A stretch of DNA of 64,000 bases from assembly GCA_963663165.1 (NCBI GenBank), contig OY760175.1:1056001-1120000 (forward strand), written 5' to 3'. Within the stretch, counting starts at the first letter, position 1. The number at the start of each line of letters is the position of its first letter. A model generated the notes under the pieces. That model ran no database searches, was not told the origin of the DNA, and saw only the letters and a list, made by a program, of their open reading frames with translations. Made by a program: the position numbers and the translations under genes. This document shows positions 22,969 to 39,686 of the stretch, piece by piece. The stretch comes from an uncultured Desulfospira sp. Lineage in GTDB: Bacteria; Desulfobacterota; Desulfobacteria; Desulfobacterales; Desulfobacteraceae.

Positions 22969-24270
22969 TTATACATTCATCAGGTTGGGCAGGAAAAGAA
23001 TAATCTGAGGAAATATAATCATCAGAATGATCTGGCACAAATCCGCGATCAAAAAGGGGATAACCCCTTTAAATACCGTTTCCATGGGAACATTGGTAAT
23101 GCCCTTAATAATAAAGACGTTCAGGCCTACCGGCGGCGTGATCAATCCCATTTCCGTTACCCGGACCATGAGAATGCCAAACCAGATCGGGTTAAACCCA
23201 AGCTCAATGATCAGGGGATAAAATACCGGTACCGTCAACAGCACAATGGCCAGAGAGTCCATCAGGCATCCCATGATCAGCACCACTAAAAGGACCATCA
23301 CAATAATGACATACCGGTTAACCGGAAGTCCTGATACAAAGGATGACAGTTCAAATGGCAGCCGGGTAATGGAGAAAAAATACCCCAGGATCATGGCCCC
23401 AAGCACAATAATAAACAGCATGCCCGAGGTCTGCATGGTGTCGGCAAGGCTGCCGGTAAATTTCTTCCAGGTCATCTTTTTGCGGAACAAGGCAAATAAA
23501 AAGGTACAGAATGCACCGATGCCGGCAGCTTCCGTGGGGGTGAAAATTCCCAAATAAATCCCGCCGATAACCAGGCAGAACAAGAGGATAACTTCCCAGG
23601 TTTTAAGGATGGAAAGCATCTTTGTCCCCAGGGTGGTGCGGGGTCCGGGAGGGCCTAATTCCGGTCTAAAACGGGTTAAAATGATAATGGTGATGATATA
23701 GAACAATGCCTCAAGAATCCCCGGAACAAAGCCCGCCAGAAACAGTTCGGCAATGGATTGTTCCGTCAGGATCCCGTAAATGATCAGAATTACGGAAGGG
23801 GGAATCAGAATGCCGATACTGCCGCCGGCGGCAATGGAGCCGGTGGCCAGGGCTTTATCATATTTGTACTTAAGCATTTCCGGCATGGCCACACGGCCAA
23901 GGGTCGCGGCTGTGGCAAGGCTCGAGCCGCTGATGGCGGCAAAACAGGCACAGGCCGCCACCGTTGCCATGGCCATCCCGCCCCGCAGGCTGCCGAATAA
24001 TTTATGCACGGCCCGGTAAAGGTCCTCGCTCATGCCGGCGGCAAAAGCAAAAGAGCCCATGAGAATAAATAAAGGGATAACGCTCATTCCCTGGCTGGCA
24101 AATGTGGTATAGGGAACCGTCTGCAACACCCCTAAGGCCACATCGGTGCTGGTAATCCAGGCAAACCCAATGAACCCCACAAGCCCCATGCATATACCGA
24201 TCTGCATGCGGCATAATATCAACACAATCAGAATACAGATACCAATCACACCAACAGTTACCGGGCTCAT
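22969..24270 (-). CDS. dctM: TRAP transporter large permease
   Basis: IPLFILMG, FAAISGSS, GILIPPS, FTPTEAA and GLITPPVG. Confidence 0.93.
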   Translation of the reverse strand: MSPVTVGVIGICILIVLILCRMQIGICMGLVGFIGFAWITSTDVALGVLQTVPYTTFASQGMSVIPLFILMGSFAFAAGMSEDLYRAVHKLFGSLRGGMAMATVAACACFAAISGSSLATAATLGRVAMPEMLKYKYDKALATGSIAAGGSIGILIPPSVILIIYGILTEQSIAELFLAGFVPGILEALFYIITIIILTRFRPELGPPGPRTTLGTKMLSILKTWEVILLFCLVIGGIYLGIFTPTEAAGIGAFCTFLFALFRKKMTWKKFTGSLADTMQTSGMLFIIVLGAMILGYFFSITRLPFELSSFVSGLPVNRYVIIVMVLLVVLIMGCLMDSLAIVLLTVPVFYPLIIELGFNPIWFGILMVRVTEMGLITPPVGLNVFIIKGITNVPMETVFKGVIPFLIADLCQIILMIIFPQIILFLPNLMNV

Positions 24271-24791
24271 TACTCCACCTTCCTTTCCGTGAACCCGCCC
24301 ATGAGTTCATAAACCAGAATCAGCGTAAACATCCCCATGCCCAGGGCAACCGGAATGATAAACGGATATGTAACAATCAGCAGCACCGAAGATGTGAGTT
24401 TGGACGCATAGGTTTCCGCCACATAAAGACAGGTCTGCCAGGTGATCAACCCTGCAAATATAATGGTGAGCACATTAATGGGAAGCATAACGGCTTTTTT
24501 AAATTTTGCAGGGAATTTGTCCATAATAAATTCTACGGCTACATGGGACTGGGTGTAAGCGCAATAGGCCACACTGAACGGGATCAGTATGGCCATCATG
24601 TACTCCACAAGTTCTAGGGCTCCGGCAATGGGGTCGTTAAACACATAACGGCAGGCCACGTCAGCGGCGGTCAGAAACATCATTGATGCCAGAACCAGGG
24701 ACCCGATCCATTTTAAAACTGTCATAACGGCCGTGATGGGTTTTCCCAGTATGGTTTCTCTTGTCAGCATTTTAACTATCCTCTCAATCAA
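24270..24791 (-). CDS. dctQ: TRAP transporter small permease
   Basis: Four TM segments with DVACRY..N.PI.GA.EL and HVAVE; start uncertain (24791 TTG or 24770 ATG). Confidence 0.88.
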   Translation of the reverse strand: MIERIVKMLTRETILGKPITAVMTVLKWIGSLVLASMMFLTAADVACRYVFNDPIAGALELVEYMMAILIPFSVAYCAYTQSHVAVEFIMDKFPAKFKKAVMLPINVLTIIFAGLITWQTCLYVAETYASKLTSSVLLIVTYPFIIPVALGMGMFTLILVYELMGGFTERKVE

Positions 24792-24972
24792 GAACCTTTG
24801 AGGTGTTTTTCAAGCGTAAACACGATCGTTAAAGGCCAGGGCAAGGCATTTGGAATCAGACCAAATTTTTTTACCGGAATCTTAAATTTCATATAGTTAA
24901 CAACCGTTTTAAGATCCCTGCAGCAGCACCATGAAACGTTAAATGCCATACCCTGGCTTAAGGGCTAAGGGC

Positions 24973-26001
24973 CTATTTCCCCCCGTTCAGGACAAAGTCA
25001 AAAATCTGCTGGGCATTGCCATGGCCTTCTTTTTCCATCTTTTTGACCCAGGCAGCCCATACGGGTTTGCCGCCGACTTCAATCCAGCGGTCATATTCTT
25101 TGTCGTCCAGGGTAAAGATATTGTCCCCATTTCCCTGGGCTTTAACTTTTTCTACACCCGTGGTTTTCATGGTGTCGAAAAAATTCTTGCCCCAGAATTT
25201 GGATCCATATTCTCCGGATACGCTTTCGATATTATCCTGAACATCCTTTGGCAGCTTTTCCCATACCTTTTTGTTCATGGCGATTGAAAAGTATACTGCC
25301 GGAAAAGGAACTTCCGTATAATACTTTGCGACCTCATAAAACCGCCAGACCACAATACCTTCCCAGGGAGCGCCCATGCCGTCAATAACGCCCTTCTGCA
25401 TGGACAGATAGTTATCGGGCATAGGAATATTCATGGGGGTTCCGCCAATGGCCGTCATCATATCGGTTGGTGGTCCACCGGTCATCCTGACTTTCATGCC
25501 TTTGATGTCTTCCATGACTTTCACCGGTTTATCAACGGTGATCAGGGTGTACGGCGCACTGGTGTAAAACAGCAGTATTTTCAGGTCTTTGTACTCGGCC
25601 TGAATTTCCGGAAATTTTTCATACACTTTCCAGAGAAGGGCGCTTCCTTCTTCTGCGGTTTTAAAGGGCATCCCCGGCAGGCTGATAACGTCGGATAAAG
25701 GGGTCATGCCGGGCCAGTAACCGTGAAAGCACCACCCGATATCGGTAATGCCCATCTTTGTGGCATTCCACATGTCTTTTCCCTTGCAAAGGGTCTGTCC
25801 ATAAAACCGTTGAATTTTAACCTTCCCGCCAGTGGCTTCTTCCACTTGGTTCAGCCAGGGTTCGATACAGTTCGCCGAACTTAACCCTGTTTCAGGGTTC
25901 TGATGGGAGAACCTGAGCGTGATGGGTTTGGCAAAACTAAGTGCTGCCGTGCCTACAATAAAGGCAACACCAAGAGCCACAATAAGAAATTGTTTCTTCA
26001 T
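24973..26001 (-). CDS. dctP: TRAP transporter substrate-binding protein
   Basis: Signal peptide, DIKGMKVR, Y.SMQKGVIDG and MNKKVWEKLP. Confidence 0.92.
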   Translation of the reverse strand: MKKQFLIVALGVAFIVGTAALSFAKPITLRFSHQNPETGLSSANCIEPWLNQVEEATGGKVKIQRFYGQTLCKGKDMWNATKMGITDIGWCFHGYWPGMTPLSDVISLPGMPFKTAEEGSALLWKVYEKFPEIQAEYKDLKILLFYTSAPYTLITVDKPVKVMEDIKGMKVRMTGGPPTDMMTAIGGTPMNIPMPDNYLSMQKGVIDGMGAPWEGIVVWRFYEVAKYYTEVPFPAVYFSIAMNKKVWEKLPKDVQDNIESVSGEYGSKFWGKNFFDTMKTTGVEKVKAQGNGDNIFTLDDKEYDRWIEVGGKPVWAAWVKKMEKEGHGNAQQIFDFVLNGGK

Positions 26002-26136
26002 GCGTCTTTCCTTAATTATTTAAAGGGTTTGTCAAACATCGACCGAAAAATATGAGGTCATCCGGCGCCCCCAAAAGGAACTATTTCCTTTGAGGGCCCG
26101 GATGGTACTGCCCTTTTCCACGTTGGTCCCGCTGTT

Positions 26137-26314
26137 TTATATGAAAGACTCAGCAACCTTTTGAGTTCTTTCAATATTTGTTGTGGGCGGTTCTTGGTTG
26201 GATAACCAAGGCGGCCCGTGGCCGTTATATGAAAGTCTCACTAACATCCTGATAAGACTTTCATTATTCCTTGTGGGCGGTTCTTGGTTGGATAACCAAG
26301 ACGGCCCGTGGCCG
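26137..26314. repeat. Two tandem ~89-bp structured repeat units (26137-26224, 26225-26314)
   Basis: Each unit is ttatat-TGAAAG..hairpin..CTTTCA followed by ttgtgggcggttcttggttggataaccaagRcggcccgtggccg; a third copy is inverted at 8875-8969. Confidence 0.9.
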
Positions 26315-27496
26315 TTAGACGGAAAGAATGGTGGTGCCGCTGTTGCCCATGAGGCCGTAGGTCTGGGCCATGGCAACTTTGGGATTGGTGACCTGCCGCT
26401 CCCCGCATCTTCCCCGAAGCTGGTTGGCACATTCAATGACCTGCCAGAGGGCCTGGGCAGACAATGCTTCCCCATGGGAAGAAAAACCGCCGCTGGGGTT
26501 TACGGAGACTTTGGCGTCGATCTTGGTCTCGCCGTCCCGCAGCATTTTATCGGCTTCCCCGTCTTTACAGAAACCACAGGTTTCAAGGTAAACCAGGTAA
26601 TGCCAGGAGCTGTTGTCCGGAAGTTCGAGTACGTCAACGTCTTCGGGTCCGATCCCGGCCTTTTCATAGGCCTGCTGGGAGGCAGAGTAACTTTCACTGA
26701 GCATGGGGGCTTCGGGGGTGGACGGACAGGAGAGTGCGGAAATACGGATGGTGGGATCGCCAAAGATGGAACTGCCCATGGTGGTGGCGTTCACCTTGAC
26801 CGGATGGTCAGCCTTTTCGATCAGTTCCTTGTCGGCGGTGACAATAACCGCTGCCGCACCGGTGCTCACCGGACAAATTTCAAACAGCCGCAGGGGGTCA
26901 CACACATAAACCGAATTCAGGACATCTTCCATGGTATAGACTTTTTTGAAGCGGGCATCGGGGTTCTTGGACCCGTACTCGCTCATGAGTACTTTGACCC
27001 TTGCCAGATCCTCTTCCGTGGTATCGTAGGTTTCCATTCTTTTGCGGCATTCCAGTGCCCAGTAAATGGGATTGGGCATCCCGCCCATTTTCCACCGGAT
27101 AACGTCTCTGTCCTGCACGGCATTGTCTGATTTGGCTGTCAAAAACCCCTTGGGGGAAACATCAGCCCCAAAGGCCAGGGCCGTATCGGTTTCACCGGCG
27201 GCCACGCTGTTATAGGCCATTCTCATGGAAGCAGACCCTGTGGCACAGGCATTGTAGACGTTAACGACCGGCACGCCGGTCTCACCAAAAACACTTTCAA
27301 GGTACTGGCCGGACAGATGGCCGGCATTGCCTCCGTAAATAAAGATACCGGCCATAATGGCCTGAATTCTTTTCCATCCAATGTTGGCGTCTTTTAAGGC
27401 AGCGTCAACAGCCGTGGTGGCAAAATCGGCAAAAACCTGTTCGGAAAACCCCATCCACGGGTGAATTCCGGTTCCAATGATATATACATCTCTCAT
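26315..27496 (-). CDS. SCP2-type (lipid-transfer-protein-like) thiolase family protein with non-canonical C-terminal catalytic motifs
   Basis: VYNACATG (catalytic Cys) and VNPSGG are present; ELPDNS replaces ELHDCF and HGEALSA replaces GHPLGA. Confidence 0.85.
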   Translation of the reverse strand: MRDVYIIGTGIHPWMGFSEQVFADFATTAVDAALKDANIGWKRIQAIMAGIFIYGGNAGHLSGQYLESVFGETGVPVVNVYNACATGSASMRMAYNSVAAGETDTALAFGADVSPKGFLTAKSDNAVQDRDVIRWKMGGMPNPIYWALECRKRMETYDTTEEDLARVKVLMSEYGSKNPDARFKKVYTMEDVLNSVYVCDPLRLFEICPVSTGAAAVIVTADKELIEKADHPVKVNATTMGSSIFGDPTIRISALSCPSTPEAPMLSESYSASQQAYEKAGIGPEDVDVLELPDNSSWHYLVYLETCGFCKDGEADKMLRDGETKIDAKVSVNPSGGFSSHGEALSAQALWQVIECANQLRGRCGERQVTNPKVAMAQTYGLMGNSGTTILSV

Positions 27497-27520: not shown

Positions 27521-27955
27521 TTATTTAACGGCTTTAAATGCCCAGGTCACTACCTGCTGTTTCTCATCATTGGTAAACAGGTCCAGGAGTGTGGTTTCCA
27601 TTTCCATCCCGACTTTAAGGGATTTAATATCTGTATCTGTGATAATGCCGGCCACCTGGATGTTCTGGTCTTTAAAATCAACCAGGCCGATGCCGTAGGG
27701 GGTAATCTTCTTTTCGGTTTTAAACGGTGCCGGACACGGATAGTACTGAATGGTATAGCTGGCCAGCACCCCTTTATTGGGAAGCAAAACCTCTTCTACC
27801 CCCTCTCTTGAGCATTCGGGACGGTGCTGATAGTGTTCCTTGGGGAAAAAGTAAACACCGCAGCTATTGCATTTTGCACTCATCAATCTGACTTCACCCG
27901 TGGACCAATCCACCAGATTGGGGATACGGGCGACTTTATTTGCCAAGTTTTCCAT
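27521..27955 (-). CDS. DUF35 Zn-ribbon/OB-fold protein (thiolase partner)
   Basis: CNSCG..FFP, G.LASYT, PYGIGLVD and LKVGMEM; adjacent to the thiolase. Confidence 0.88.
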   Translation of the reverse strand: MENLANKVARIPNLVDWSTGEVRLMSAKCNSCGVYFFPKEHYQHRPECSREGVEEVLLPNKGVLASYTIQYYPCPAPFKTEKKITPYGIGLVDFKDQNIQVAGIITDTDIKSLKVGMEMETTLLDLFTNDEKQQVVTWAFKAVK

Positions 27956-28047: not shown

Positions 28048-28815
28048 TTACCGGCCCACAAATTTGGGCGCTCTTTTTTCAAGGTATGCATCCACCCCTT
28101 CTTTTTTGTCTTCAAGGGACAAGGACAGGGCATACATTTCATACTCATAGGCAAGGCCGTCTCTAAGGCCGGTGTTCATGCCCTTGTTAATGGACTGTTT
28201 TGCCAGCCTCAATGCGGCCGCGCTTTTTGAGGCAATCTTTGCGGCAACCTCTTTGGCTGTGGGCATGAGTTCATCCATTCCCACAACCCGGTTCACCAGC
28301 CCGATCCGGTATGCCTCATCCACCCGGATGATATCCCCGGTAAAAATCAGTTCCTTTGCCCTGAATGCACCGACGTGCCGCTGAAGCCGCTGGGTTCCGC
28401 CGCCGCCGGGGATGATGCCCAGGTTGATTTCCGGCTGGCCGAACTTGGCTTTTTCAGAGGCGATGATCATGTCACAGGCCATGGCGACTTCGCAGCCGCC
28501 GCCTAAGCAGAAACCGTTGACCGCCGCAATAACCGGCTTGGGCAGGGCTTCCACAATATCACCGACCCGGACAATATTATGGGCGGCAAAGGGCGTGGTG
28601 GCATGGAACTGTTTGATGTCTGAACCGGCCACAAAGGCTTTGCCGGCGCCTGTCAAAATCAAAACCTTTATATTGTCGTCTTCTTCAACATCTTTGGCAG
28701 CCTGAGCAAATTCAGCCCGCAGTGCAATGTTGAGGGCATTCATGGCCTCAGGACGGTTAAAGGTGATAATGGCAATATTGTCTTCTTTTTCTAAAATGAT
28801 GTTTTCATACGCCAT
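28048..28815 (-). CDS. Enoyl-CoA hydratase/crotonase
   Basis: NRPEAMNAL, AFVAGSD, GGGCE and FGQPE (both catalytic Glu), PGGGGTQRL; start MAYEN at 28815. Confidence 0.92.
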   Translation of the reverse strand: MAYENIILEKEDNIAIITFNRPEAMNALNIALRAEFAQAAKDVEEDDNIKVLILTGAGKAFVAGSDIKQFHATTPFAAHNIVRVGDIVEALPKPVIAAVNGFCLGGGCEVAMACDMIIASEKAKFGQPEINLGIIPGGGGTQRLQRHVGAFRAKELIFTGDIIRVDEAYRIGLVNRVVGMDELMPTAKEVAAKIASKSAAALRLAKQSINKGMNTGLRDGLAYEYEMYALSLSLEDKKEGVDAYLEKRAPKFVGR

Positions 28816-29115
28816 GGGTTTATTCTCCCTGTTTGTTATGAAAGTCCGCAGGTTTGCAACATGAACACTGTTAATATGCAGTTGCTTAATCTGTGTGTCT
28901 TTCAAAATTTGCCGTATCTTTGAGACACGGCTGATTTATGAAAGTGATCAGTATTAAAAAATAATCATCTATATATAATCGGGCCGACCGGAATGATTAT
29001 AATTTTCCGTAATGCCGGCCCGCTTCACTTCACTGGATCTGGATCAGGCTTTTTGCACCAATAGAATAATCCGGCCACCAGATCCTGATAGACCAGGACT
29101 GCCGTCTATTCCCCT

Positions 29116-29883
29116 TTACTGGGCGGTCAGGCCGCCGTCCACATAGATGGTCTGTCCGGAAACAAATCCGGCGGCTTGAGATGCCAGGTACACACAGGCA
29201 CCGGCCAGGTCTTCGGGAAGTCCAATCCGTCCCATGGGGACAGCGGCAGCGTACTTTTTGGCCAGTTCCGGATTTTCAGCAATATGTTTGGTGCCCGGGG
29301 TGATGATCAGGGCCGGCCCGATGGCGTTGACCCGGATGCCCAGGGGAGCCCATTCCAGGGCCAGGGCTTTGGTGATCAGTTCTACGGCCCCTTTGGTGGC
29401 ACAGTAACCGGAATTTCCACCGGTATACCCGCGGATGCCGCGTACGGAGGAAAGGTTGATGATAGATCCTTGTTTTTGTTCTTTCATTACCTGACCCACG
29501 GCCTTGCAGGCAATCATGGTTCCCTTGACGTTGACGTTGAACAGTTTGTCCCAGTCTTCCACCGGGTATTCAAAGGCATCGTGCTTGATGTTCATGCCCA
29601 TGGCGTTCACCAGAATGTCGATTCTGCCGTATTTTTCTTTCACCTGGCTGACCAGGGCGGCCATGCTTTCTTCACTGGTAACATCACAGGTAATGGCAAT
29701 GGCTTTATTGCCCGATTCACGGGTGATCTTCTCCGCCACCGCATCAATGGCACTCTGATTACGGCTGGATACCACAACTGTTGCCCCATGGATGCCAAGC
29801 CCTAATGCAAGGGCTTCCCCAATACCGCCGGCGCCGCCGGTGACAATGGCAATTTTTCCGTCTAATTTAAAAAAATCTTTCAT
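29116..29883 (-). CDS. Short-chain dehydrogenase/reductase (candidate polyhydroxybenzene reductase)
   Basis: TGGAGGIG, SS, YCATK and VDGG; Arg after the second beta strand (SSRN) suggests NADP(H) preference. Confidence 0.88.
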   Translation of the reverse strand: MKDFFKLDGKIAIVTGGAGGIGEALALGLGIHGATVVVSSRNQSAIDAVAEKITRESGNKAIAITCDVTSEESMAALVSQVKEKYGRIDILVNAMGMNIKHDAFEYPVEDWDKLFNVNVKGTMIACKAVGQVMKEQKQGSIINLSSVRGIRGYTGGNSGYCATKGAVELITKALALEWAPLGIRVNAIGPALIITPGTKHIAENPELAKKYAAAVPMGRIGLPEDLAGACVYLASQAAGFVSGQTIYVDGGLTAQ

Positions 29884-29918: not shown

Positions 29919-30251
29919 TTACGGGGTAACAATAAACACGAGGACTTCGGCCGGTTTTCCATTATTGATAACCATATCCCGTTCTTCACCCGGAGCGATA
30001 TAGATCATTCCCCCCTCGTTGAGGACGTGGCTTTCACCATCCTTGCCGTTTACGGTAATGGACCCTTTGGTGACGTAGTAGACACGTTCTTTGGGAGACG
30101 GGCACATCTCAGCGCCGCCGTCAGGCTGAAAGTAGGAATAGCAAACCGTTATTCTTTTCGAATCAGCTTCGGTCAATTTTTGCAGGCCAAACACACCAAA
30201 ATGCTTGGCCGCATCATAAGGGGTTCCCTTTGCGTCTTCAACACTGATCAT
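29919..30251 (-). CDS. Small cupin-fold protein (metal His ligands not evident)
   Basis: ERVYYVTKG.I.V...L.EG..IYIAPGEER cupin pattern; GGAGG RBS. Confidence 0.78.
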   Translation of the reverse strand: MISVEDAKGTPYDAAKHFGVFGLQKLTEADSKRITVCYSYFQPDGGAEMCPSPKERVYYVTKGSITVNGKDGESHVLNEGGMIYIAPGEERDMVINNGKPAEVLVFIVTP

Positions 30252-30365: not shown

Positions 30366-30377
30366 ATTGCATGCAAT
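30366..30377. promoter_or_regulatory. Putative GntR (FCD) operator ATTGCATGCAAT in the divergent promoter
   Basis: Perfect 12-bp palindrome; the related TTGCATACAA lies at 36368-36377 upstream of the GntR gene. Confidence 0.5.
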
Positions 30378-30707
30378 TTCCCGAAACGCAAGTCTTTTTT
30401 TTACCATAACCACGGTATCTTGAATGGAAATGTCCGATTTTTTGCACAAGCTCCCGGGACGGATGGATTTTTCATTCAAAATTAAATGACATATTACATG
30501 AAAAAAAATCTTGACTCTTTACATTCCATGCCTGTAGGATCAATGCCAACCATACGGTCGCTGTATCTCCCTGTGGAAAAAAGAGCCTGCTATTACTGAC
30601 CCTGCCCCGTTCTGACCGTAGCCTGAAGATAACGCAAGCACCATTATTGTTATAGATTGAGCATCATTATCTTTAACCGTGTCTTTTACAAAAGGAGGGG
30701 TGTAACA

Positions 30708-33317
30708 ATGACGAAAATCAAAACCAAGGACAAAACTGTATTGCGCAGTCTTGGGCTGGGTGGTTTCTTTGGCGGCGGTGCCGAAGGCATGGTGGATGTC
30801 AAAGACGGCAAAATTGTACGGGTCAGGCCCATGCGGTACGGGTGGAAGTACGACAAAGAGGAGGTCCGGCAATGGAAAATGGAACGAAACGGCAAAACCA
30901 TTGAACCGGCCTGGAAATCCCTTCCCGGCCCCTTTTCCCTGGCGTATAAAAAAAGGGTCTATTCCCCCAACCGGATCAAGTACCCCATGAAACGAGTGGA
31001 CTGGGATCCCAACGGGGAACGCAATCCCCAGAATCGGGGCAAATCCAAATATGTCCGCATTTCCTGGGACGAGGCCACGGACATCATTGCTTCTGAGATT
31101 AAACGGATCCATAAAACCTACGGGTACCACGCCATTTTAATGCAGGGAGACGGCCATGGCGAATGCAAGACCATCAACACCCCCCACGGACATTCGGGCA
31201 CCCTGTTAGACCACATGGGCGGATTTACCATCCAGGTCAGAAACCCGGACTCATGGGAAGGCTGGTACTGGGGGGCCAAACATGTCTGGGGCCAGGGGGT
31301 CCAGGGCAACATGTGGCCGGCCGCCAACATTGTCAACGACACGACCAAAAATTCCGAAATGGTGCTGTTCTGGGGGTGTGACCCTGAGACCACGCCCTGG
31401 GGATTTACCGGCCAGTTTCCCTCGCGGCTGTGTTATTTCTGGTCCGAGGTGGGCATCAGCCAGGTCTATATCTGTCCGGATCTTAACTATGGCGCGGCCA
31501 TCCATGCGGACAAATGGATTCCCATCCTGCCCAACACCGATGCGGCCCTTCAGCTGGCCATCGCCTATGTCTGGATCACCGAAGATCTTTATGACAAAGA
31601 ATATGTAGACACCCATGTGGTGGGATTTGAACCCTTTAGCGACTATGTCCTGGGCAAAGAGGACGGTGTGGCCAAAACCCCGGCCTGGGCATCCAAAAAA
31701 TGCGGGATTCCCGAATGGACCATCAAGGCCTTGGCCCGGGAGTTCGGCAACAAGACCACCTCCATTGCCCACTACTTTGGCGGCGGGTTTATAAGGGCGG
31801 CCTTTTCCCATGAAAATGCCCGGCTTGAAGTCGTTTTGCTGGGCATGCAGGGCCTTGGCAAACCCGGGGTTCACCAGCACCAACTCACCTATTTCGGCAT
31901 GCCCAGGAAAGAAGGCCTTGGGGGCACCTTTTTCTGGAACCCGGAAATTGAAGAACGCCTGTCGGTTCCGGTCATGTCCTCGGTCACGGCCTGGCAGCAG
32001 CAGGTTATCCCGAAAACCTTGATTCACAAGGCCATTGAATCCGACGAACCCATCACCTTTTACGGAACCGGCGCCATTGAGGCCCTGGCCCTGGACCAGT
32101 TCAACGAATACACCTACCCCATTCCAAAAGAAGAAGGCGGCACGGAAATCCACATGATGTGGACCGACACCCCCTGCCGCATCACCTGCTGGAACGGCGG
32201 TAACGAAACCCAGCTAGCCCTGCGAAACCCCAAAATCGAGACCATTGTCTCCCAGCACCCCTGGCTGGAAAATGACTGCATTTACTCGGACATCATCCTG
32301 CCCGCCAACACCTATATGGAGGTGGATGACTTTTTAACCAATATCCGCCAGGGCACCCAGCAGCCCAACATGATGATTGCCGATAAAGCCATTGAGCCCA
32401 TCGGGGAATCCAAAAGCGATTTTGAAATCGTTGTGGAAATCGCCAAAAAGCTCGGATATGAAGAAGAGGTTACCGGCGGCCAGTCTATAAAAGACATGCA
32501 AAAGAAAATCTGGGGCTACATGGACGGCGAGAAGCTGGTTCCCTGGGAACAGCTTGAGGAAAAGAAATACTGGATGTACAACACGGCCAAAGACTGGGAA
32601 AAAGACCCGGCCGGATTTGAGATGTTTGCCAAAAATCCGGAAGCCAGCCCCCTGCCCACCCCATCCGGCAAGCTTGAATTCTACTCTGAAAGCCTGGCCA
32701 AAAACTTTCCCCATGATCTGGAAAGGCCCCCGATTCCCAAATGGATTGAAAAAAGTGCCATGCATGACGAGAGGCTGTCCAGCCACCGGGCCAAAATGTT
32801 CCCGCTGCTGCTCATGTCCAACCACGGCAGATGGCGGGTCCATTCCCAGTGCGATGATATTACCTGGACAAGGGAGGCACCGACCTGCAAGGTCACCGGA
32901 CCGGACGGCTATAAATATGAACCCGTATGGATTCACCCGTCTGAAGCTGAAAAAAGAGGCATCAAAAACGGTGATATTGTTAAAGTCTACAATGAACGGG
33001 GAATTGTACTGGCCGGAGCCTATGTCACGGAACGGCTGCGGCCCGGCGTGGTCTATATGGACCACGGGGCCCGGCATGACCCCATCAAAACCGGAGAAAT
33101 CGAACGGGGCGGCGCCATAAACACGATTTCCCCTGCCGGGATTACCTCGGCCAACTGTGTGGGCCAGGCCACATCCGGCTACCTGGTGCAGGCGGAGCGG
33201 CTTTCCGGCGAAGAGATGGACCAGTGGCGCAGGGAATTTCCCGAGGCTTTTGCCCGGGAATATGATGCGGCCGCAGGGTTGAGATTTGATGCATGGATAG
33301 AGGGAGGGAGCAAATAA
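30708..33317 (+). CDS. Molybdopterin (bis-MGD) oxidoreductase alpha subunit, pyrogallol-transhydroxylase (AthL)-like, divergent
   Basis: VKDGKI, YPMKRVDWDPNGERNPQNRG, RISWDEA, NPDSWEGW (Ser Mo ligand), DIILPA and TPSGKLEF. No N-terminal Fe-S motif or Tat signal. Start at 30708 after AGGAGG. Confidence 0.85.
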   Translation: MTKIKTKDKTVLRSLGLGGFFGGGAEGMVDVKDGKIVRVRPMRYGWKYDKEEVRQWKMERNGKTIEPAWKSLPGPFSLAYKKRVYSPNRIKYPMKRVDWDPNGERNPQNRGKSKYVRISWDEATDIIASEIKRIHKTYGYHAILMQGDGHGECKTINTPHGHSGTLLDHMGGFTIQVRNPDSWEGWYWGAKHVWGQGVQGNMWPAANIVNDTTKNSEMVLFWGCDPETTPWGFTGQFPSRLCYFWSEVGISQVYICPDLNYGAAIHADKWIPILPNTDAALQLAIAYVWITEDLYDKEYVDTHVVGFEPFSDYVLGKEDGVAKTPAWASKKCGIPEWTIKALAREFGNKTTSIAHYFGGGFIRAAFSHENARLEVVLLGMQGLGKPGVHQHQLTYFGMPRKEGLGGTFFWNPEIEERLSVPVMSSVTAWQQQVIPKTLIHKAIESDEPITFYGTGAIEALALDQFNEYTYPIPKEEGGTEIHMMWTDTPCRITCWNGGNETQLALRNPKIETIVSQHPWLENDCIYSDIILPANTYMEVDDFLTNIRQGTQQPNMMIADKAIEPIGESKSDFEIVVEIAKKLGYEEEVTGGQSIKDMQKKIWGYMDGEKLVPWEQLEEKKYWMYNTAKDWEKDPAGFEMFAKNPEASPLPTPSGKLEFYSESLAKNFPHDLERPPIPKWIEKSAMHDERLSSHRAKMFPLLLMSNHGRWRVHSQCDDITWTREAPTCKVTGPDGYKYEPVWIHPSEAEKRGIKNGDIVKVYNERGIVLAGAYVTERLRPGVVYMDHGARHDPIKTGEIERGGAINTISPAGITSANCVGQATSGYLVQAERLSGEEMDQWRREFPEAFAREYDAAAGLRFDAWIEGGSK

Positions 33318-34135
33318 TGAAAGCATTTTTTCTGGATTTATCCGTATGCAACGGCTGCTACTGCTGCCAGATTGCCTGCAAGGACGAACATGTGGCCAAT
33401 GACTGGACCCCCTACGCCAAACCCCAGCCCGACACCGGACAGTTCTGGATCGGCATCACCGAACTGGTCCGGGGCCAGGTGCCCAAGGTCAAGGTCACCT
33501 ATATTCCTAAAATGTGCCACCACTGCGATGATGCCCCCTGTATGGAACAATGCGCCTATGACGCCATTGAAAAGCGGCCAGACGGCCTGGTGCTTATCCT
33601 GCCGGACAAATGTACGGGGTGCAAGCTGTGCCGGGACGCTTGTCCCCATGATGCCATTTACTTTAATGAAGACCTGAACATTGCCCAGAAATGCACGGGC
33701 TGCGCCCATTTGCTGGACAATGACGATGATTGGGAAGTGCCCCGCTGTGTGGACCAGTGTCCTACTGATGCCTTAAGGTTCGGCGAGGAATCTGATTTTG
33801 CCGACTTTATCAAAGATGCCGAACCCATCAACCCCGCAGCCGGGACCAAATCACGGGTATATTACAAGAACCTGCCCAAAAAATTTGTGGCCGGCACCGT
33901 GTATGACCCGGTTGAGAAAGAGGTGATCATCGGGGCGGCCTGCACCCTTAAAGACAACGACTCCAAAGAACAGTTCACAGCGGTGACGGATAACTTCGGC
34001 GACTTCTGGTTCAGAAAGCTTGCCGATGACCGGACTTTTACCCTGAACATTGAAAAGGACGGGGCAAAGAAAGTGATTGAGAATATTGTCACGGATAAGG
34101 ACCTTTGCCTTGGGGACATTCCTATGGAAGGATGA
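33317..34135 (+). CDS. Fe-S beta subunit of the transhydroxylase-like enzyme
   Basis: CNGCYCCQIACKDE, CHHCDDAPC, CTGCKLC..ACP, KCTGCAH and CVDQCPT; C-terminal beta-sandwich (TDNFGDF). TAATG overlap with alpha. Confidence 0.88.
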   Translation: MKAFFLDLSVCNGCYCCQIACKDEHVANDWTPYAKPQPDTGQFWIGITELVRGQVPKVKVTYIPKMCHHCDDAPCMEQCAYDAIEKRPDGLVLILPDKCTGCKLCRDACPHDAIYFNEDLNIAQKCTGCAHLLDNDDDWEVPRCVDQCPTDALRFGEESDFADFIKDAEPINPAAGTKSRVYYKNLPKKFVAGTVYDPVEKEVIIGAACTLKDNDSKEQFTAVTDNFGDFWFRKLADDRTFTLNIEKDGAKKVIENIVTDKDLCLGDIPMEG

Positions 34136-34235: not shown

Positions 34236-34624
34236 TAAAAGGTAGTAAAACAGGCCCTGTATAATCGTTATTCTTGATGATTGAAGGGCTGCCCGGATAT
34301 ACAGAAGGTTGAGTAAAAAGTGTTGCTTTTCCAGGGTTTAATCAAAGGCCGGAGTTTAATATATTAAATTTACTGGTGGCGTTTCCAGGCAGGCACAATA
34401 TATGGTGATCGGATAATTTCAGAAAAATCGTTCAATCATACCAGTAAAAACCTTTTGAAAATCTATATTATGATAGGGCACTTGAAATAGGTTCATTATT
34501 AATAAACAGCTAATTAAAATAAAAAAAAATTTGCATCTAACACTAACATTTTCCTGATATTGATGAATTTAGTATGAAATCATGTTTAGCAATTTGGGGA
34601 ATAAAAGTATTCTTAGGAAAAAGA

Positions 34625-35338
34625 ATGTTGAAAACTATTATTTTATTCACGACTATTTTTCTTTGTGCGACAAGCTCGAAAGCAGCTATTGTTAATTTTA
34701 ATTTTACAGGACACGTTGTCGACGGATCTATTAACTCACCTCATCGAGAAGGAGGGAGTGGATATTTTGGAGAAAGCTATTTAGGATCAATTTCTTATGA
34801 TACAGAGGGTGCTGAATTACTGAGTGGGTTAAATGGTCGATATTACTATACCCTACCTATAGCTGCATTCAACATTGCATTCTCAGAGACAAAGCTTAGG
34901 TATTTTGGCACCACTGATGGAGAGAACTCATCTCTTCATGTCATCGTATGGAATGATTACGAATCAGATTTTCCTCTTGTGCACATACCAAAACAAGACA
35001 GGTATGAGTTTTCATTTGTTTTCAACCAAACAAGTATCTTTCGATTTTTAGCATTAGATTTTGCGCTTATGGATGGAGAATATGATACTTCACTTATTGA
35101 ATCCGCTGAAATTCCTAATGACATTAGCTCCTTGATTGGATTCGAGTCCTATCATATGCATTATACTCATTACGATGGAATCACATATAGTTACGGGACT
35201 TCAGGTGTTGGAAATACCCCTTTTCCCGCCGTTCCACTGCCAGCATCTTTTTTATTGATGGGTGTTCCTCTTTTCTTTGGATTTTGTCTAAAGAAAGGTC
35301 GAAAAGAAGGGGCTCAGAGAAAAAAACGATTCATTTAG
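34625..35338 (+). CDS. AT-rich secreted protein with a VPLPA-CTERM (PEP-CTERM-like) sorting signal
   Basis: Signal peptide MLKTIILF...SSKA, then C-terminal AVPLPAS, a hydrophobic stretch and a basic tail. Visibly lower GC than the flanks. Confidence 0.75.
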   Translation: MLKTIILFTTIFLCATSSKAAIVNFNFTGHVVDGSINSPHREGGSGYFGESYLGSISYDTEGAELLSGLNGRYYYTLPIAAFNIAFSETKLRYFGTTDGENSSLHVIVWNDYESDFPLVHIPKQDRYEFSFVFNQTSIFRFLALDFALMDGEYDTSLIESAEIPNDISSLIGFESYHMHYTHYDGITYSYGTSGVGNTPFPAVPLPASFLLMGVPLFFGFCLKKGRKEGAQRKKRFI

Positions 35339-35644
35339 CTGAGTTTGGCTTCGAAAGATATGAGGATGAAAAAGAAGACTATTTCATATATGATTCATGG
35401 TATTGACTATGTCTATTAGTCCTGGTTTTTTTGGAAAACCATTCAACCCCAATATCTTGTGCTGCTTTGAAAGGTCAAGAATCAAGTCTATAGAACATAA
35501 AATTGATCAGACAATCATGGTGTGATGGGGTTCTTTCAGGGAGTGAAAGCCCTTTGCAAAAACCGCCGGCAGGAACGAACGTCTAAAACAGACGATCCCC
35601 CTGCCGGCGGAAAATATATTTGATACAGCAGGAAAAGCCGCAGG

Positions 35645-36310
35645 TCAGGCCCGCTGGGGCTTTTTTTGATCGAAAATGAGGGGGAACAGATTTTCTTTGG
35701 ACAAATCGCTGTGTTCTTTGACCAGCTTTTTGGCATTATGAACGTCTCTTTTGGCAATGGCTGAGAAAAGGGCGTCATGCTCATCAACGATTTCCAGCAA
35801 GCGCTTGGATTCCAGGTGTTCGGTCCTGAACCGTAAAAAGATCCGCTGATAAATTTCTGTATAAAAATCTTTGTAATACAGGTTGGCGGCCATTTCGCCA
35901 ATGGCGGCATGGAAATTCATATCCAGCGCAAACACATGCCGGTGCTGCCGTTCTTTTACCGATGAGGCGTACATATTTTTCCGGTCTTCAATATGTTTGA
36001 TGCCTTCAGGGGTGGCCTTCTCAATTGCCTTCTCGATGATCCCGAGATCAAGGATCAGCCGGATCTCATAAAGGGAATCGGCCTCTTCCCGTGTCAGTTT
36101 ATGCACGGAATATCCCTGGTTGGGGATAAAGTCAAGATACCCTTCCTTGGCCAGAATGGACAAGGCGTTGTTTACCGGTGTCCTGCTGACGCCGAGTTCT
36201 TTGGCCAGGTCAACAAAGACAAGCCGCTGGCCCGGCACGATATCATAGTTGAGCATCATCTGCTTGATATCGTCGTAGACCCGCAGGGTTAAATTTTTTT
36301 GTTCAGGCAT
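35645..36310 (-). CDS. GntR-family transcriptional regulator (FCD domain)
   Basis: PGQRL...LAKELGVSRTPV, D..FH and EH..L..AI. Confidence 0.92.
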   Translation of the reverse strand: MPEQKNLTLRVYDDIKQMMLNYDIVPGQRLVFVDLAKELGVSRTPVNNALSILAKEGYLDFIPNQGYSVHKLTREEADSLYEIRLILDLGIIEKAIEKATPEGIKHIEDRKNMYASSVKERQHRHVFALDMNFHAAIGEMAANLYYKDFYTEIYQRIFLRFRTEHLESKRLLEIVDEHDALFSAIAKRDVHNAKKLVKEHSDLSKENLFPLIFDQKKPQRA

Positions 36311-36689
36311 TCAAATTCTCCCATTGTAGGGCATTACAAAAAACGGATGATATGCGGCGACCTCATCTTGCATACAACAAGTATGTTATATTTTACATAC
36401 ATGCCCGATGACGAATCCCTCTTTTTTCCCCGGCATCTGCCGAACTGCAAACCCCGGAAAATTTTCAGCAGGATTTAAGCGTTTAATCCGTCAAAAACGA
36501 AACGATTCCGGCTTGTTTAACACAATACTTAGAACTTTGCCAGAGTTTTTACAGACTGACAACAGGCTTGATATGCAAAAACAGTACCTGTTGTTAAGAC
36601 TGAAGGCTGAAGACCGAAGGTTTAACGTATATTAACCATCTTTTACAATTCACGTTCAGTCTAAACACCTTCAGCCTATTTACCTTAAT

Positions 36690-37469
36690 TTAGCCTTTTT
36701 CAAACCTGAAGGTCTGATCCGGATCAACCACAGCCAGCACCCTTACAATGCAGCCGTCGCCTTCGACCCAGCGCCACGGGAAGGCCATGAAAAAACAGCG
36801 TTTGCCCGTGACTTTATCCAGGTCGCCGCCCACGTTTTCAATTCCCGGGATCCCGCCTTTGCACATCAGGTTTTTATGGCCCGGTTCCCAGTCCGGGAAA
36901 TCTTCCATGGGATCACGGCCGGTAAACTTTTTGTATTCTTCAATCAGATGGGGCTGGGAAGGTCCCAAACCATGGTCCACCAGTTTGGTGGCAATGGGGT
37001 GGTCATTGGCCTGGCAGCCGTACCCGACACATTTGATCTTCTTGTCCACCAGCCACTGGGCACCGGCACCGGAGATCCCGCAGCCATAGGCGAAATAGTC
37101 ATCACAATCAGCCCATTGATGATGGAAACCGGTATTGATCATGACCATATCCCCTTCCTGGATGGCCGGGGTGGCGGCTTCCAGATCTTCCGGGGTGATC
37201 ACCCCCCATTTGCCCTTGGGGATGGAAACGGCCACACCGGTGCCGCAAAGGCGCCACAGGGGATAATCGCTGATGCCGGGTGTATTTTCAGTCACATGAA
37301 TAGGGGCATCCATATGGGTACACCGGTGCATGATGCCTTCCCAGTTGACCTGGTAAACCCCGTCTTTTGCATGGAATTTGTTGACCGTTACATTCACGCC
37401 GGGTGAAGACGGCCATTCAGGCATATGCTGATGAAACGAATGACTTAAGTTGTATATTTCAAGACTCAT
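36690..37469 (-). CDS. Cyclase-family (kynurenine formamidase-like) metal hydrolase
   Basis: HRCTHMDAPIH, INTG, H..L and IEN. Confidence 0.85.
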   Translation of the reverse strand: MSLEIYNLSHSFHQHMPEWPSSPGVNVTVNKFHAKDGVYQVNWEGIMHRCTHMDAPIHVTENTPGISDYPLWRLCGTGVAVSIPKGKWGVITPEDLEAATPAIQEGDMVMINTGFHHQWADCDDYFAYGCGISGAGAQWLVDKKIKCVGYGCQANDHPIATKLVDHGLGPSQPHLIEEYKKFTGRDPMEDFPDWEPGHKNLMCKGGIPGIENVGGDLDKVTGKRCFFMAFPWRWVEGDGCIVRVLAVVDPDQTFRFEKG

Positions 37470-37490
37470 TTTTATTCTCCATTCAATAGA

Positions 37491-38294
37491 TTATTTACCG
37501 GCGTCAATGCGGCAGTTCCCGGAAGGGTCAATCATGGCAACAAACCGTACGGGACAGGCATCCCCGTATTTAAATTTCCAGGGCGTGGCCACGAAGGTCG
37601 CCCGTTTGCCGGCAAGCACATCCACATCGCCCCCCACCTGTTCCACTGTGGGGATTCCGGCACTCAACAGGGTTTTATGGGCCACATTCCAGTCGGGATG
37701 TTCCTTTTTGGGATCTTTGCCCGTGGCTTTGGTGTAGGCCTGAACCAGGCGGTTCATCTGGGGGCCGCCCCGGTGGGGTCCTAAAGACGTGGCCAGGGGA
37801 TGATCCACCTGGGGGGTGTCCACGGCCACCAGTTTACAATTCTTATCCACCAGCCATTTGGCCGCATCAGCGGTAAGGCCCGGGGATTCGCCAAAATATT
37901 CAAGGGCATCGGAATATTTGTGATGCCATCCGGTCAGGATCACCACAATGTCCCCGTCTTTTACGCCCGGGGATGCGGCTTCAAGATCTTCGGCCGTGAT
38001 GGTTTCCCAGCTTGTCTTGGGGATATTTAATACCACCCCGTTTCCGAAAAAACGGTCTTCGGGGATTTCAGACAGGTCTGCCGCGCGCTGAACCAGGTGA
38101 ATGGGGGCATTCATATGGGTTCCGGTATGCATCAATGTGCTGATTTTCCAGGCCAGGACACCATGCTGGGCATGTTTAACGCCCCTAACCATTTTCACAT
38201 CTTCCTGTCCCGGATAGGACGGAACGCCATGGCCCCACTCATGGCTCAATTCAACCAGTTGTAATCCTGAATAAGGATCGGATACCATTGTCAT
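37491..38294 (-). CDS. Cyclase-family (kynurenine formamidase-like) metal hydrolase, second paralogue
   Basis: HTGTHMNAPIH (Asp to Asn), VDTPQVDH, AHKTLL and VEQVGG. Confidence 0.85.
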   Translation of the reverse strand: MTMVSDPYSGLQLVELSHEWGHGVPSYPGQEDVKMVRGVKHAQHGVLAWKISTLMHTGTHMNAPIHLVQRAADLSEIPEDRFFGNGVVLNIPKTSWETITAEDLEAASPGVKDGDIVVILTGWHHKYSDALEYFGESPGLTADAAKWLVDKNCKLVAVDTPQVDHPLATSLGPHRGGPQMNRLVQAYTKATGKDPKKEHPDWNVAHKTLLSAGIPTVEQVGGDVDVLAGKRATFVATPWKFKYGDACPVRFVAMIDPSGNCRIDAGK

Positions 38295-38462
38295 AACAAC
38301 CTCTACTTTTGTTAGGTAAATAGGTTTAAGGCTCTTCCCTTAAAGAGAAGCACCCCCTTTGGGATTATAGCCTTTTAAATAACATAATGATCTAAATTAC
38401 ATTGTCATGTTTGCAGCGCAAACTTTTGTTTCAAGCCCGGGTTCTGCCCTGATGCCGCCCCC

Positions 38463-39686
38463 TTACAAGGACAGCACCTGGATCAGTGCGGTTTCCCCTT
38501 TGGCAAGTTTTTCCCGGCCTTCGGGGATGACGGCCACGGCCGTAGCATCAGCCATGGACTGAAGGCGCGCCCGTGATTTTAAGGGTTCAAATTCAAGGCC
38601 CTTTTCGCCTGCAGTGGTTTTTCCAAAGAAAAACCGGGTCCAGTTCCGGGGGCCCCAGTTGAGTTCAACGGCCATTACGGCCGGCACTTTGGGAAGCCCT
38701 GGGTTAAGGCACCCCGAAAGTCTTTCAAGGCCCGGCAGGGCGATCTGCAAAAACCCCATGAGATTGGATGGCGGCCCGCCGGGCAGGATAAATACAGGCG
38801 TATCCTTTCTCATGCCGAATCCCACAGCCTTCCCCGGTCCAATGCGAATCCGGTGAAAGGCCTTTTGCCACCCAAGGTCTGACAAAATTCTGGCCACAAG
38901 ATCCCGGTCCCCGGTCCAGGCACCGCCGGAGGTGACCACGGCATCACAGGATTCAAAGGCCGTTTCAAGGGCCTTTTTAATGACGGCTGGATCATCTTTT
39001 GCCGTAACCAAGATGGTTTCCATGCCCAAATGCCGGCAAAAAGCACTTAAGGTGACCATGTTACTGGCGTATAATTTACCTTCAGCCAGGGGCTTTCCCG
39101 GGGCCACCACCTCATCGCCGGTGGCCAGGACAGCCACCTTTGGCCGTTGATAAACCGGCACCTCACTGAATCCTGAAGCCGCCATAATCCCGGCAAGACC
39201 GGGGGATACCCGAAGGCCCTTTTGGGCCACGCAGTCTCCCTTCTGGACATCAGAACCCATGAGCATGATGTTCCGGCCGGGTTCAGCCACCGCTTTGGCA
39301 CTGATGCAGCCGTCACACAGATCGGCAAATTCCTCTGACAGCACGGCATCGGCCCCGTCAGGAATTCTGGCCCCGGTCAGAATCCGCATGGCAGCGCCCG
39401 GTGAAAGGCGGCAGGGTTTGTCCCCCCCGGCAGCGGAACAGGTGTCCATGAGAGGCAAGGTTACCGGCTGATCCGGCCCGGCACCGTCCAGATTCGCAGA
39501 CACCACGGCATAACCATCTTTAAGGGACGCATCAATGGAAGGGGAATTTACTCTTGACACCATGGGGGCGGCCACCACACGACCGGTACTCTGCGCTAGG
39601 GGCACCACTTCTTTTCCCAAAGGCCGGACGGTCTCAAGGGTAATCTTCAACGCCTCTTCAAACCCCATGGGCAGCCATGGAATCAT
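38463..39686 (-). CDS. moeA: Molybdopterin molybdenumtransferase
   Basis: SLKDGYAV, RILTGA.IP.GADAV, ATGDE, TSGG, PGK and LPGGP. Confidence 0.92.
   Translation of the reverse strand: MIPWLPMGFEEALKITLETVRPLGKEVVPLAQSTGRVVAAPMVSRVNSPSIDASLKDGYAVVSANLDGAGPDQPVTLPLMDTCSAAGGDKPCRLSPGAAMRILTGARIPDGADAVLSEEFADLCDGCISAKAVAEPGRNIMLMGSDVQKGDCVAQKGLRVSPGLAGIMAASGFSEVPVYQRPKVAVLATGDEVVAPGKPLAEGKLYASNMVTLSAFCRHLGMETILVTAKDDPAVIKKALETAFESCDAVVTSGGAWTGDRDLVARILSDLGWQKAFHRIRIGPGKAVGFGMRKDTPVFILPGGPPSNLMGFLQIALPGLERLSGCLNPGLPKVPAVMAVELNWGPRNWTRFFFGKTTAGEKGLEFEPLKSRARLQSMADATAVAVIPEGREKLAKGETALIQVLSL

Follow-up and report, generated by a model that had tools for sequence, protein, structure and literature searches.

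The window studied here is the whole 64,000-nucleotide stretch of contig OY760175.1 (positions 1,056,001 to 1,120,000) of an uncultured Desulfospira sp., and the element in question is the gene cluster at its positions 22969-39686. This cluster is a real, conserved and uncharacterised sister of a known pathway, the anaerobic degradation of phloroglucinol. It is a rearranged copy of a conserved and previously unstudied anaerobic operon which, as judged from its sequences, appears to parallel the phloroglucinol pathway gene for gene, as a sister of it; the operon enzymes share about 30-52% identity with their phloroglucinol counterparts and their pockets are altered. The compound degraded would be another, related phenol, a ring-substituted 1,3,5-trihydroxybenzene of plant or algal origin being the most probable, a reading that we hold with moderate confidence. 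An earlier note on this DNA had proposed an anaerobic polyhydroxy-aromatic pathway with uptake by a tripartite ATP-independent periplasmic (TRAP) transporter, molybdenum chemistry, reduction by a short-chain dehydrogenase/reductase (SDR), ring opening by a cyclase (compare DPGC, below) and CoA-dependent C-C cleavage, and this outline was supported. Both the different substrate and the variant lower pathway that it suggested find support in synteny and in genomes that hold the canonical cluster as well.

Gene neighbourhoods were compared using cyc1, one of the two cyclase-family genes of the cluster, as bait. The sample consisted of the best 80 of 234 stretches encoding a cyc1 relative (identity 71-97%) and spans Desulfobacterota, Bacillota, Actinomycetota and Acidobacteriota, with full 10-kb flanks in 49 of the 80 loci only. 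The second cyclase gene, cyc2, was present in 79/80 loci, and the contig of the remaining one stops just past cyc1. An AthL-type molybdenum alpha subunit was found in 42 loci (21 of these of type A), the SDR in 34, the cupin in 21, the thiolase in 20, the OB-fold protein and the hydratase in 18 each, an ADP-forming CoA ligase (ACD) in 18 (beta subunit) and 16 (alpha subunit), the GntR regulator in 10, a third kind of molybdenum enzyme in nine and MoeA in eight. The cluster genes are co-conserved around cyc1 relatives above chance, and the set of cyc2, SDR, cupin, thiolase-OB-hydratase and AthL recurs in Desulfobacterota, Bacillota and Actinomycetota. An even sample of 301 Desulfobacterales genomes (the order draw, in which kin are not independent and three AthL candidates per genome were scored) contained the thiolase in 11 genomes, cyc2 in 15 and AthL-B at a level of at least 66% in 15. 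Ten of the 11 thiolase genomes also had cyc2, and cyc2 and AthL-B coincided in 14 of 15; the operon of the sole thiolase genome without cyc2 (L251) is the same except that it holds only one cyclase, a related one. Among 351 genomes drawn phylum-wide, a close cyc2 was found in four and a close thiolase in the host genome only.

Gene maps revealed a compact operon, IclR-(dctPQM)-athLB-athS-cupin-SDR-cyc1-cyc2-ACDb-ACDa-ECH-OB-thiolase, in seven loci (L043, L046-L049, L057 and L062, of which L049 and L062 are cut by contig ends). In the genome G013, the AthL-A orthologue is transcribed divergently to athLB-athS-cupin-SDR-ACDb-ACDa-ECH-OB-thiolase-dctPQM, and moeA, cyc1, cyc2 and gntR form a block located separately. 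Because of this map, the left block of the window can be described as the G013 arrangement minus athL-B/athS and the ligase. A second AthL/AthS pair and an IclR gene lie 9-13 kb to the right of the cluster, and this IclR is a homologue of the regulator with which the compact operon of relatives begins. Beyond the DPGC listing of Zhou 2023, no study of the cyc1/cyc2 operon was found in the literature.

A gene for a PEP-CTERM-like protein (34574-35338) splits the cluster; it was present in 0/80 related loci and is an insertion outside the pathway. The spacer holding it is variable, and the sister genome has four other genes there. It could be argued that the host stretch is a patchwork of separately acquired, partly decayed blocks that no longer make up one pathway, which seems to us highly improbable. 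The non-conserved low-GC spacer between the blocks, with its different filling in the sister genome, the missing ligase and operon-type AthL-B and the many paralogues elsewhere in the host genome would agree with such a history. However, all genes are intact and near their compact-operon orthologues (75-92% for most, less for the TRAP subunits), both blocks are preceded by similar palindromes, which are also found upstream of athL-B or cyc1 in 4 relatives, and the layout of the window is kept in G001.

The characterised ring opener, DPGC, is a Mn-dependent cyclase-family protein with Trp20 and Tyr22 (Zhou 2023, PMC10470551). The metal site of cyc2 is complete (H48, H52, D54, H58, H198, E211) and kept in 76/76 complete orthologue ORFs; Trp19 is kept too, and the position of DPGC Tyr22 is Ser in 76/76 orthologues. 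The cyc1 protein has Asn in place of the metal-binding motif Asp in 80/80 orthologues, and the W20/Y22 positions of DPGC are Y/G in cyc1 and W/S in cyc2. The metal-ligand roles of these positions are presumed. The DPGC clade was recovered by profile search, via representatives, and its reference P0173, which clusters with a Eubacterium ramulus protein, shows W20/Y22 as well as DAPRHV, the motif that the published DPGC qPCR primer implies; the primer itself had 0 matches in metagenome contigs. Identity of cyc1 and cyc2 with the DPGC clade was 29-33%. In a cyclase tree of 28 rows (all trees were quick or FastTree ones, without bootstrap), cyc1, cyc2 and the DPGC group formed one clade (SH-aLRT 95) lying in a superclade apart from ten generic cyclases (SH-aLRT 97). 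Neither cyc1 nor cyc2 combines W20, Y22 and an intact metal site as expected of DPGC orthologues, and they represent a sister clade only.

In a natural fusion protein of 524 aa, P0122 (4 of its 6 cluster members are full length), one half is of cyc1 type and the other of cyc2 type; the halves group accordingly in the cyclase tree. Modelling of the cyc1-cyc2 complex gave a score of 0.94 against 0.07 for the best control, with contact agreement across runs of at least 96% and partner pLDDT of at least 94; the pass mark was reached by 51/78 solved pairs and 2/108 mismatched pairs. Because of the fusion and of these model scores, cyc1 and cyc2 likely form one heterodimeric ring hydrolase, of which cyc1 would be the non-catalytic partner. 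The two cyclase-family hydrolases (PF04199) announced earlier are both present, but they are probably one enzyme and not two steps.

The same cyclase data bear on whether the substrate might be a hydroxylated N-heterocycle or an aminophenol, the cyclase opening a lactam or imide C-N bond. We consider this very unlikely. Kynurenine formamidase and isatin hydrolase are among the characterised cyclases, AthL-B gains a Glu at the Trp354 position, and alcohol/aldehyde dehydrogenases occur near the pair in L090, L113, L117, L120 and L121; however, cyc1 and cyc2 group with DPGC rather than with generic amidohydrolases, and no recurrent amidase, deaminase or xanthine-oxidase-type gene appeared among the annotated neighbour clusters.

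Further cyclases were observed outside the window. The host genome has an additional cupin-SDR-cyclase group at 3.81 Mb (G000 3813495-3816947, L001). The cyclase of this group, the third in number, belongs to a clade of its own (WPF motif) and is accompanied by an AsnC regulator, a cupin, an SDR (52%) and an MFS gene, and L001-like sister-module operons occur in L251, L253 and L271. The cyclase P0133/P0134 is nested next to the DPGC clade, has Trp-Pro-Ser and the same Tyr->Ser change as cyc2, and by its sequence is a candidate for substituted-ring cleavage in other anaerobes.

The SDR of the cluster is 35% identical to a gut PGR-clade protein, the PGR identity of this reference resting on synteny and a C-terminal primer motif, and it groups with that protein and with an SDR adjoining a canonical DPGC against 4 generic SDRs (SH-aLRT 91, long branches). 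The PGR structure 5G4L was not among the top 60 of 250 PDB matches of the SDR, nor among 11 matches of its paralogue.

Two transhydroxylase-like molybdenum enzymes are encoded in the window, and both were aligned to 4V4C, the AthL/AthS enzyme of Pelobacter acidigallici. AthL-B keeps S143, H144, Y152, D174, S175, W176, Y404, C557 and Y560 and has the substitutions R153K, H154M, L351R and W354E, by which the pyrogallol-pocket residues Arg153/His154/Trp354 become K/M/E; it is not a true AthL orthologue. AthL-A keeps the His144, Asp174 and Ser175 positions, and Tyr404, Tyr560, Cys557, Trp354 and Arg153 are not conserved. The roles assigned to the active-site residues of transhydroxylase reportedly go back to Messerschmidt 2004. 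An AthL tree (FastTree, 64 rows) separated types A, B and C, the last N-terminally extended, and placed AthL-A in a separate clade holding 5 of the nine AthL-like alpha subunits of the host genome. A fourth 4Fe-4S motif was present in the beta partners of type A (22/22) and in none of those of type B (0/22) or C (0/7); 4V4C_B is also without it. These motifs suggest that type A does net redox chemistry and type B transfers hydroxyls.

The claim that the cluster is built around AthL-A had to be abandoned. The compact operon has AthL-B ahead of cupin-SDR-cyc1-cyc2, and AthL-A, which was found in 3/3 compact-operon Desulfobacterota genomes, was not found in the 2/2 Bacillota genomes searched that carry cyc1/cyc2; for these reasons AthL-A is an associated enzyme and not the cluster core. 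The molybdenum enzyme most tied to the operon is AthL-B, whose window copy lies outside 22969-39686 and whose subclade sits in the cyc1/cyc2 operon in L056, L068, L097, L109 and L114. Only family-level names were obtained for AthL-A from the Atlas.

Several other molybdenum enzymes were recorded. The third kind, of FS0 type, lies at 79704-81911 of the genome with a small ferredoxin and a GntR paralogue (76385-83905, L008); the TRAP set adjoining it, at 0.08 Mb of the host genome, is the closest paralogue of the window TRAP genes (73/48/61%). Type C AthL (G000 1138206-1140788; L075:14947-18015) is extended by ~150 aa at the N-terminus and has Trp where Arg153 would be. An array at G000 3843510-3864743 (L003, L004) comprises TRAP genes, four AthL/AthS pairs that are intact and an alpha subunit that is fragmented, and G665 and G667 have 16 AthL-type matches each, an unusually large expansion.

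Regarding the lower branch, neither a CoA ligase or transferase nor a 3-hydroxyacyl-CoA dehydrogenase is encoded within 22969-39686, as had been stated before, and tblastn detected no ligase remnant between the SDR and hydratase genes of the window. Since ACD alpha and beta sit between the SDR/cyclases and the hydratase in relatives, and also in a paralogous ligase-hydratase-OB-thiolase block at 4.52 Mb of the host genome (4.517-4.522 Mb), the missing ligase looks like a local loss, as far as sequence comparison can tell. The hydratase keeps both catalytic Glu (139 and 159), a pair found in 20/20 orthologues, and the OB-fold protein, with C29, C32, H41, H44 and C48 invariant in 20/20 orthologues, is likely the partner subunit of the thiolase-like protein. 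The latter keeps the nucleophile Cys84 and has PDNS for the HDxF motif and Glu343 for the GHP His (GEA where SCP2-type and BbsB thiolases have GHP), so that both histidines are absent; the second Cys is absent as well. Cys84, PDNS and Glu343 are invariant in 21/21 orthologues. The catalytic Tyr of the Ltp2/Sal retro-aldolases, given as YDHF/YDCY in the available part of PMC12329534, is not present in this protein, which has Pro there, and its active site matches none of the motif sets compared. A single-sequence AlphaFold model of the thiolase (mean pLDDT 35) was discarded as unusable.

Two kinds of lower branch accompany cyc1/cyc2. The ligase/hydratase/OB/thiolase set was found in 21 loci, a dehydrogenase/cleavage enzyme/CoA transferase set in 13 and both in 1/80. 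The second set is that of Bacillota and Geopsychrobacteraceae, in which cyc1/cyc2 occur with a hydroxyacid dehydrogenase, a beta-keto acid cleavage enzyme (BKACE), a 3-oxoacid CoA transferase and a thiolase, enzyme types that handle a 3-hydroxy-5-oxo acid. On chemical grounds, a set consisting of ligase, hydratase with two Glu and an enzyme with a Cys nucleophile, but no dehydrogenase, would agree with a 3-hydroxy-5-oxoacyl-CoA being first dehydrated and then cleaved by vinylogous thiolysis. This thiolysis is the weakest step of the proposal and we advance it tentatively; a retro-aldol cleavage instead is rather unlikely, and so, to a like degree, is ordinary beta-oxidation with the SDR as dehydrogenase. 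Succinyl-CoA synthetase and methylmalonyl-CoA mutase genes near the pair (L053, L073, L077, L097, L121) were not taken as pointing to succinyl or propionyl among the products, being too sparse and partly housekeeping.

These branches also bear on hydroxyhydroquinone (1,2,4-trihydroxybenzene) as the ring that is attacked, by reduction to a 4-hydroxy-1,3-dione and subsequent opening to 2- or 4-hydroxy-5-oxohexanoate, with the molybdenum enzymes funnelling in resorcinol, catechol and others. An NAD(P)H-dependent hydroxyhydroquinone reductase is reportedly present in the sulfate reducer Desulfovibrio inopinatus, resorcinol hydroxylase is among the AthL relatives, a D-2-hydroxyacid dehydrogenase gene precedes the paralogous ligase block of the host, and a 2-hydroxyacyl-CoA dehydratase gene precedes the SDR in L106. 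Nevertheless, both lower branches (3-hydroxyacid dehydrogenase with beta-keto acid cleavage, and the two-Glu crotonase) require an acid with oxygen at C3, and no such acid would arise on this route; the 2-hydroxyacid neighbours are single cases; we regard the route as quite unlikely.

Taking a substituted phloroglucinol-type ring as the substrate, the following sequence of reactions can be proposed. The TRAP transporter would import an acidic phenol and AthL-B would move a hydroxyl, without net redox change, to give the meta-trihydroxy pattern. AthL-A, whose extra Fe-S cluster could serve as electron exit, and the third molybdenum enzyme may add hydroxyls to feeder phenols or remove them, or alternatively may supply a tetrahydroxy co-substrate. 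The SDR would then reduce one ring ketone, and the cyc1-cyc2 heterodimer, with the single metal site of cyc2, would open the ring by hydrolysing the 1,3-dione in a retro-Claisen reaction, yielding R-CO-CH2-CHOH-CH2-COOH. This acid would be converted to its CoA ester by a ligase of the ADP-forming kind whose genes lie in trans, the hydratase would dehydrate the ester to a 5-oxo-2-enoyl-CoA, and the thiolase/OB-fold complex would cleave C4-C5 via Cys84 to R-CO-CoA and crotonyl-CoA, with no dehydrogenase needed.

That the substrate differs from phloroglucinol is argued by the coexistence of the cyc1/cyc2 operon and the canonical cluster in six genomes (G664, G665, G666, G667, G487 and G603). One of them, G664, has a true AthL orthologue (875 aa, with P. 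acidigallici motifs) and two canonical DPGCs, apart from a pair operon of the form cyc1-cyc2-Mo-AthL-B-thiolase-cupin-dehydrogenase-cleavage enzyme-SDR-TRAP. Among five genomes checked for coexistence, four had both systems and G663 the pair only. The pocket changes run one way: DPGC Tyr22->Ser, AthL Leu351->Arg and Trp354->Glu, and, in the cleavage enzyme TAL, Trp->Gly/Phe, the motif being GAWP in 35/35 motif-matched canonical proteins and GAGT/GAFV/GAGP in 4 beside cyc1/cyc2. The only BKACE of the host has Val at the TAL Trp16 position, and the cluster contains no TfD or TAL.

The same coexistence and the pocket differences in cyclase, cleavage enzyme and AthL speak against an old, divergent but isofunctional pyrogallol/phloroglucinol pathway, whose novelty would be confined to a hydrolase of two subunits and a lower branch with CoA ligase. 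Moreover, G506 and G594, which are without cyc2 and the thiolase, contain canonical AthL together with canonical DPGC. We judge such isofunctionality rather unlikely, and several observations are on its side: AthL-B retains nearly all transhydroxylase residues, the cupin is common to both pathways, and L090, with cupin, dehydrogenase, CoA transferase, two thiolases, pair and SDR, resembles what we take to be the enzymology of P. acidigallici. In addition, the DPGC list of Zhou, in the part available, takes in both the cyc1 and cyc2 families.

The following facts weigh against a different substrate or its proposed route. The list in PMC10470551, as far as accessible, names as DPGCs, unassayed, two Desulfopila aestuarii proteins, of 260 and 268 aa, which in length match the L075 orthologues of cyc2 and cyc1, respectively; in the same list both proteins fall into UniRef50 clusters separate from CsDPGC. 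Canonical DPGC is absent from most cyc1/cyc2 genomes: it occurs in 4/301 genomes of the order draw, two with and two without cyc1/cyc2, and is lacking in 13/15 of the cyc2 genomes. The host genome was found to be without canonical DPGC, PGR, TAL and TfD (best matches 33%, 35%, 47% and 36%), and the absence of canonical enzymes fits plain phloroglucinol use equally well. The SDR adjoining a canonical DPGC nests among pair-operon SDRs, and consequently SDR type fails to separate the substrates. The host genome lacks an orthologue of the compact-operon AthL-B subclade and a local ligase, and therefore the locus depends on genes in trans; G663 and G666 carry cyc1/cyc2 and gave no AthL match. The exclusivity of the two lower branches (1 observed against ~3.4 expected) is weak and follows taxonomy, the pass of the cyc1-cyc2 complex may reflect likeness to solved cyclase dimers, and a literature search for vinylogous thiolase chemistry found no paper.

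The most far-reaching version of the proposal would be a cross-phylum anaerobic route, undescribed so far, by which substituted rings of the phloroglucinol type are degraded, such as fragments of phlorotannins, flavanol A-rings or hydroxyphenyl acids. It would involve three novel kinds of catalyst: a cyclase heterodimer in which one subunit has lost its metal site, a branch of the transhydroxylase family that has four clusters and is redox-active, and a His-less thiolase/OB-fold enzyme performing vinylogous retro-Claisen thiolysis of a 5-oxo-2-enoyl-CoA, so that no dehydrogenase would be needed. Taken as a whole, this version appears unlikely.

As to uptake, the closest PDB chains of DctP were 7NR2/7NRA, 4N6D, 4PGN, 4NAP and 4P56, which we take to be aromatic-acid binders, although no paper confirming this was found. 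With respect to regulation, the boxes TTGCATGCAA (30367) and TTGCATACAA (36368) lie in two promoter regions, their motif having been chosen post hoc. It occurs 18 times genome-wide against 25.6 expected, and 13 times among 92 loci against 6 expected; of these 13, the sister genome accounts for three, and among the remaining ten, 4 lie upstream of athL-B or cyc1. From their sequence, the boxes are put forward as possible GntR operators as a lead only.

The features of the cluster are listed below. Gene calls were based on the ORF listing and Pfam/NCBIfam scans, which bore out fifteen genes and placed all those listed by the earlier note where it had put them.

Table. Features of the cluster at 22969-39686 and related genes of the window.
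Feature	Position	Strand	Evidence or remarks
dctM	22969-24270	-	TRAP transporter, Pfam
dctQ	24270-24791	-	TRAP transporter, Pfam
dctP	24973-26001	-	TRAP transporter, Pfam; carboxylate-binding Arg position kept
SCP2-type thiolase-like protein	26315..27496	-	Pfam/NCBIfam; PDB alignments to SCP2 thiolase, BbsB and archaeal thiolase
Zn-ribbon/OB-fold (DUF35) protein	27521..27955	-	PF01796
Enoyl-CoA hydratase (ECH)	28048..28905	-	Pfam/NCBIfam; likely start 28815
SDR, Ser-Tyr-Lys triad; putative ring-ketone reductase	29116..29883	-	Pfam/NCBIfam
Small cupin	29919..30251	-	PF07883
Palindromic box TTGCATGCAA, candidate GntR operator	30367..30376		Divergent cupin/athL-A promoter
AthL-A, divergent transhydroxylase-like Mo-bisPGD subunit	30657..33317	+	Likely start 30708, 869 aa; 418 bits to 4V4C_A
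AthS-A, four-cluster 4Fe-4S beta subunit	33293..34135	+	Alignment to 4V4C_B
PEP-CTERM-like surface protein, low GC	34574..35338	+	Atlas PEP-CTERM clusters; GC 0.367
GntR/FCD regulator	35645..36310	-	Pfam
Box TTGCATACAA	36368-36377		Upstream of GntR gene
cyc2, cyclase-family subunit, intact metal site	36690..37469	-	PF04199
cyc1, cyclase-family subunit, metal Asp -> Asn62	37491..38294	-	PF04199
MoeA, local molybdenum-cofactor biosynthesis	38463..39686	-	Pfam/NCBIfam
AthS-B, three-cluster beta subunit (outside 22969-39686)	48494-49372	-	
AthL-B, transhydroxylase-like (outside 22969-39686)	49347-51863	-	871 bits to 4V4C_A
IclR regulator (outside 22969-39686)	52154..53020	+	48% to L046 IclR

The host, a sulfate reducer of Desulfobacteraceae type, has a genome that is a single contig of 6.74 Mb, and the right block of L042 is 91-100% identical to that of the window. 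Between the thiolase and dctP genes (26137-26317) there are two copies of a palindromic repeat of ~60 nt, REP/MITE-like, with 252 blastn matches in the host genome. A hydrogenase-4/Mrp-type membrane subunit is encoded to the left of the cluster (14851-16821), and at the right end of the window (62113-63818) there is a low-GC gene pair whose products resemble, by eye, PIN-like and HTH/peptidase-like proteins.

The oxygen-free mineralisation of buried plant and algal polyphenols is poorly resolved. In the Desulfobacterales draw the cyc1/cyc2 pair (15/301) was commoner than canonical DPGC (4/301), and if the substrate differs, genomes counted as phloroglucinol degraders by these cyclases are mis-annotated. 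Cultured carriers are D. aestuarii DSM 18488, Desulforhopalus singaporensis DSM 12130, Desulfamplus magnetovallimortis and Neomoorella sulfitireducens.

Finally, the cluster was compared with known systems. With the PGR-DPGC-TfD-TAL cluster of Clostridium scatologenes, in the part of PMC10470551 available, it has in common an SDR, a cyclase-family hydrolase and a neighbouring cupin, and relatives of cyc1/cyc2 likewise occur with dehydrogenase, cleavage enzyme, CoA transferase and thiolase; it differs in having two cyclases, one without the metal Asp, the change Tyr22->Ser and no TfD/TAL. Canonical gut phloroglucinol loci (n=80) contained the SDR in 65 cases, a cupin homologue (~37%) in 41, the dehydrogenase in 58 and the cleavage enzyme in 56, whereas the ligase/hydratase/thiolase-OB branch matched 0/80. 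The alpha subunits share with P. acidigallici AthL (4V4C) a Ser-ligated Mo-bisPGD without FS0, and the beta subunits share with AthS the Fe-S clusters and a C-terminal beta-sandwich-type domain; however, true orthologues of AthL exist separately (G664, G594). BbsAB (7PXP), SCP2 thiolase, the Ltp2/Sal aldolases (PMC12329534, as far as accessible) and PhlABC have in common with the window an SCP2-type fold and a Zn-ribbon/OB-fold partner with a hydratase adjoining, and BbsB and SCP2 thiolase also the nucleophilic Cys; the window protein differs from BbsAB, SCP2, Ltp2 and Sal by PDNS at HDxF/YDxx and GEA at GHP, having neither the thiolase His pair nor the aldolase Tyr. The third, FS0-bearing molybdenum enzyme with its small ferredoxin, near the pair in the nine loci mentioned, may by analogy play a role like that of the catechol dehydroxylases Dadh, Hcdh and Cadh (PMC7028382).

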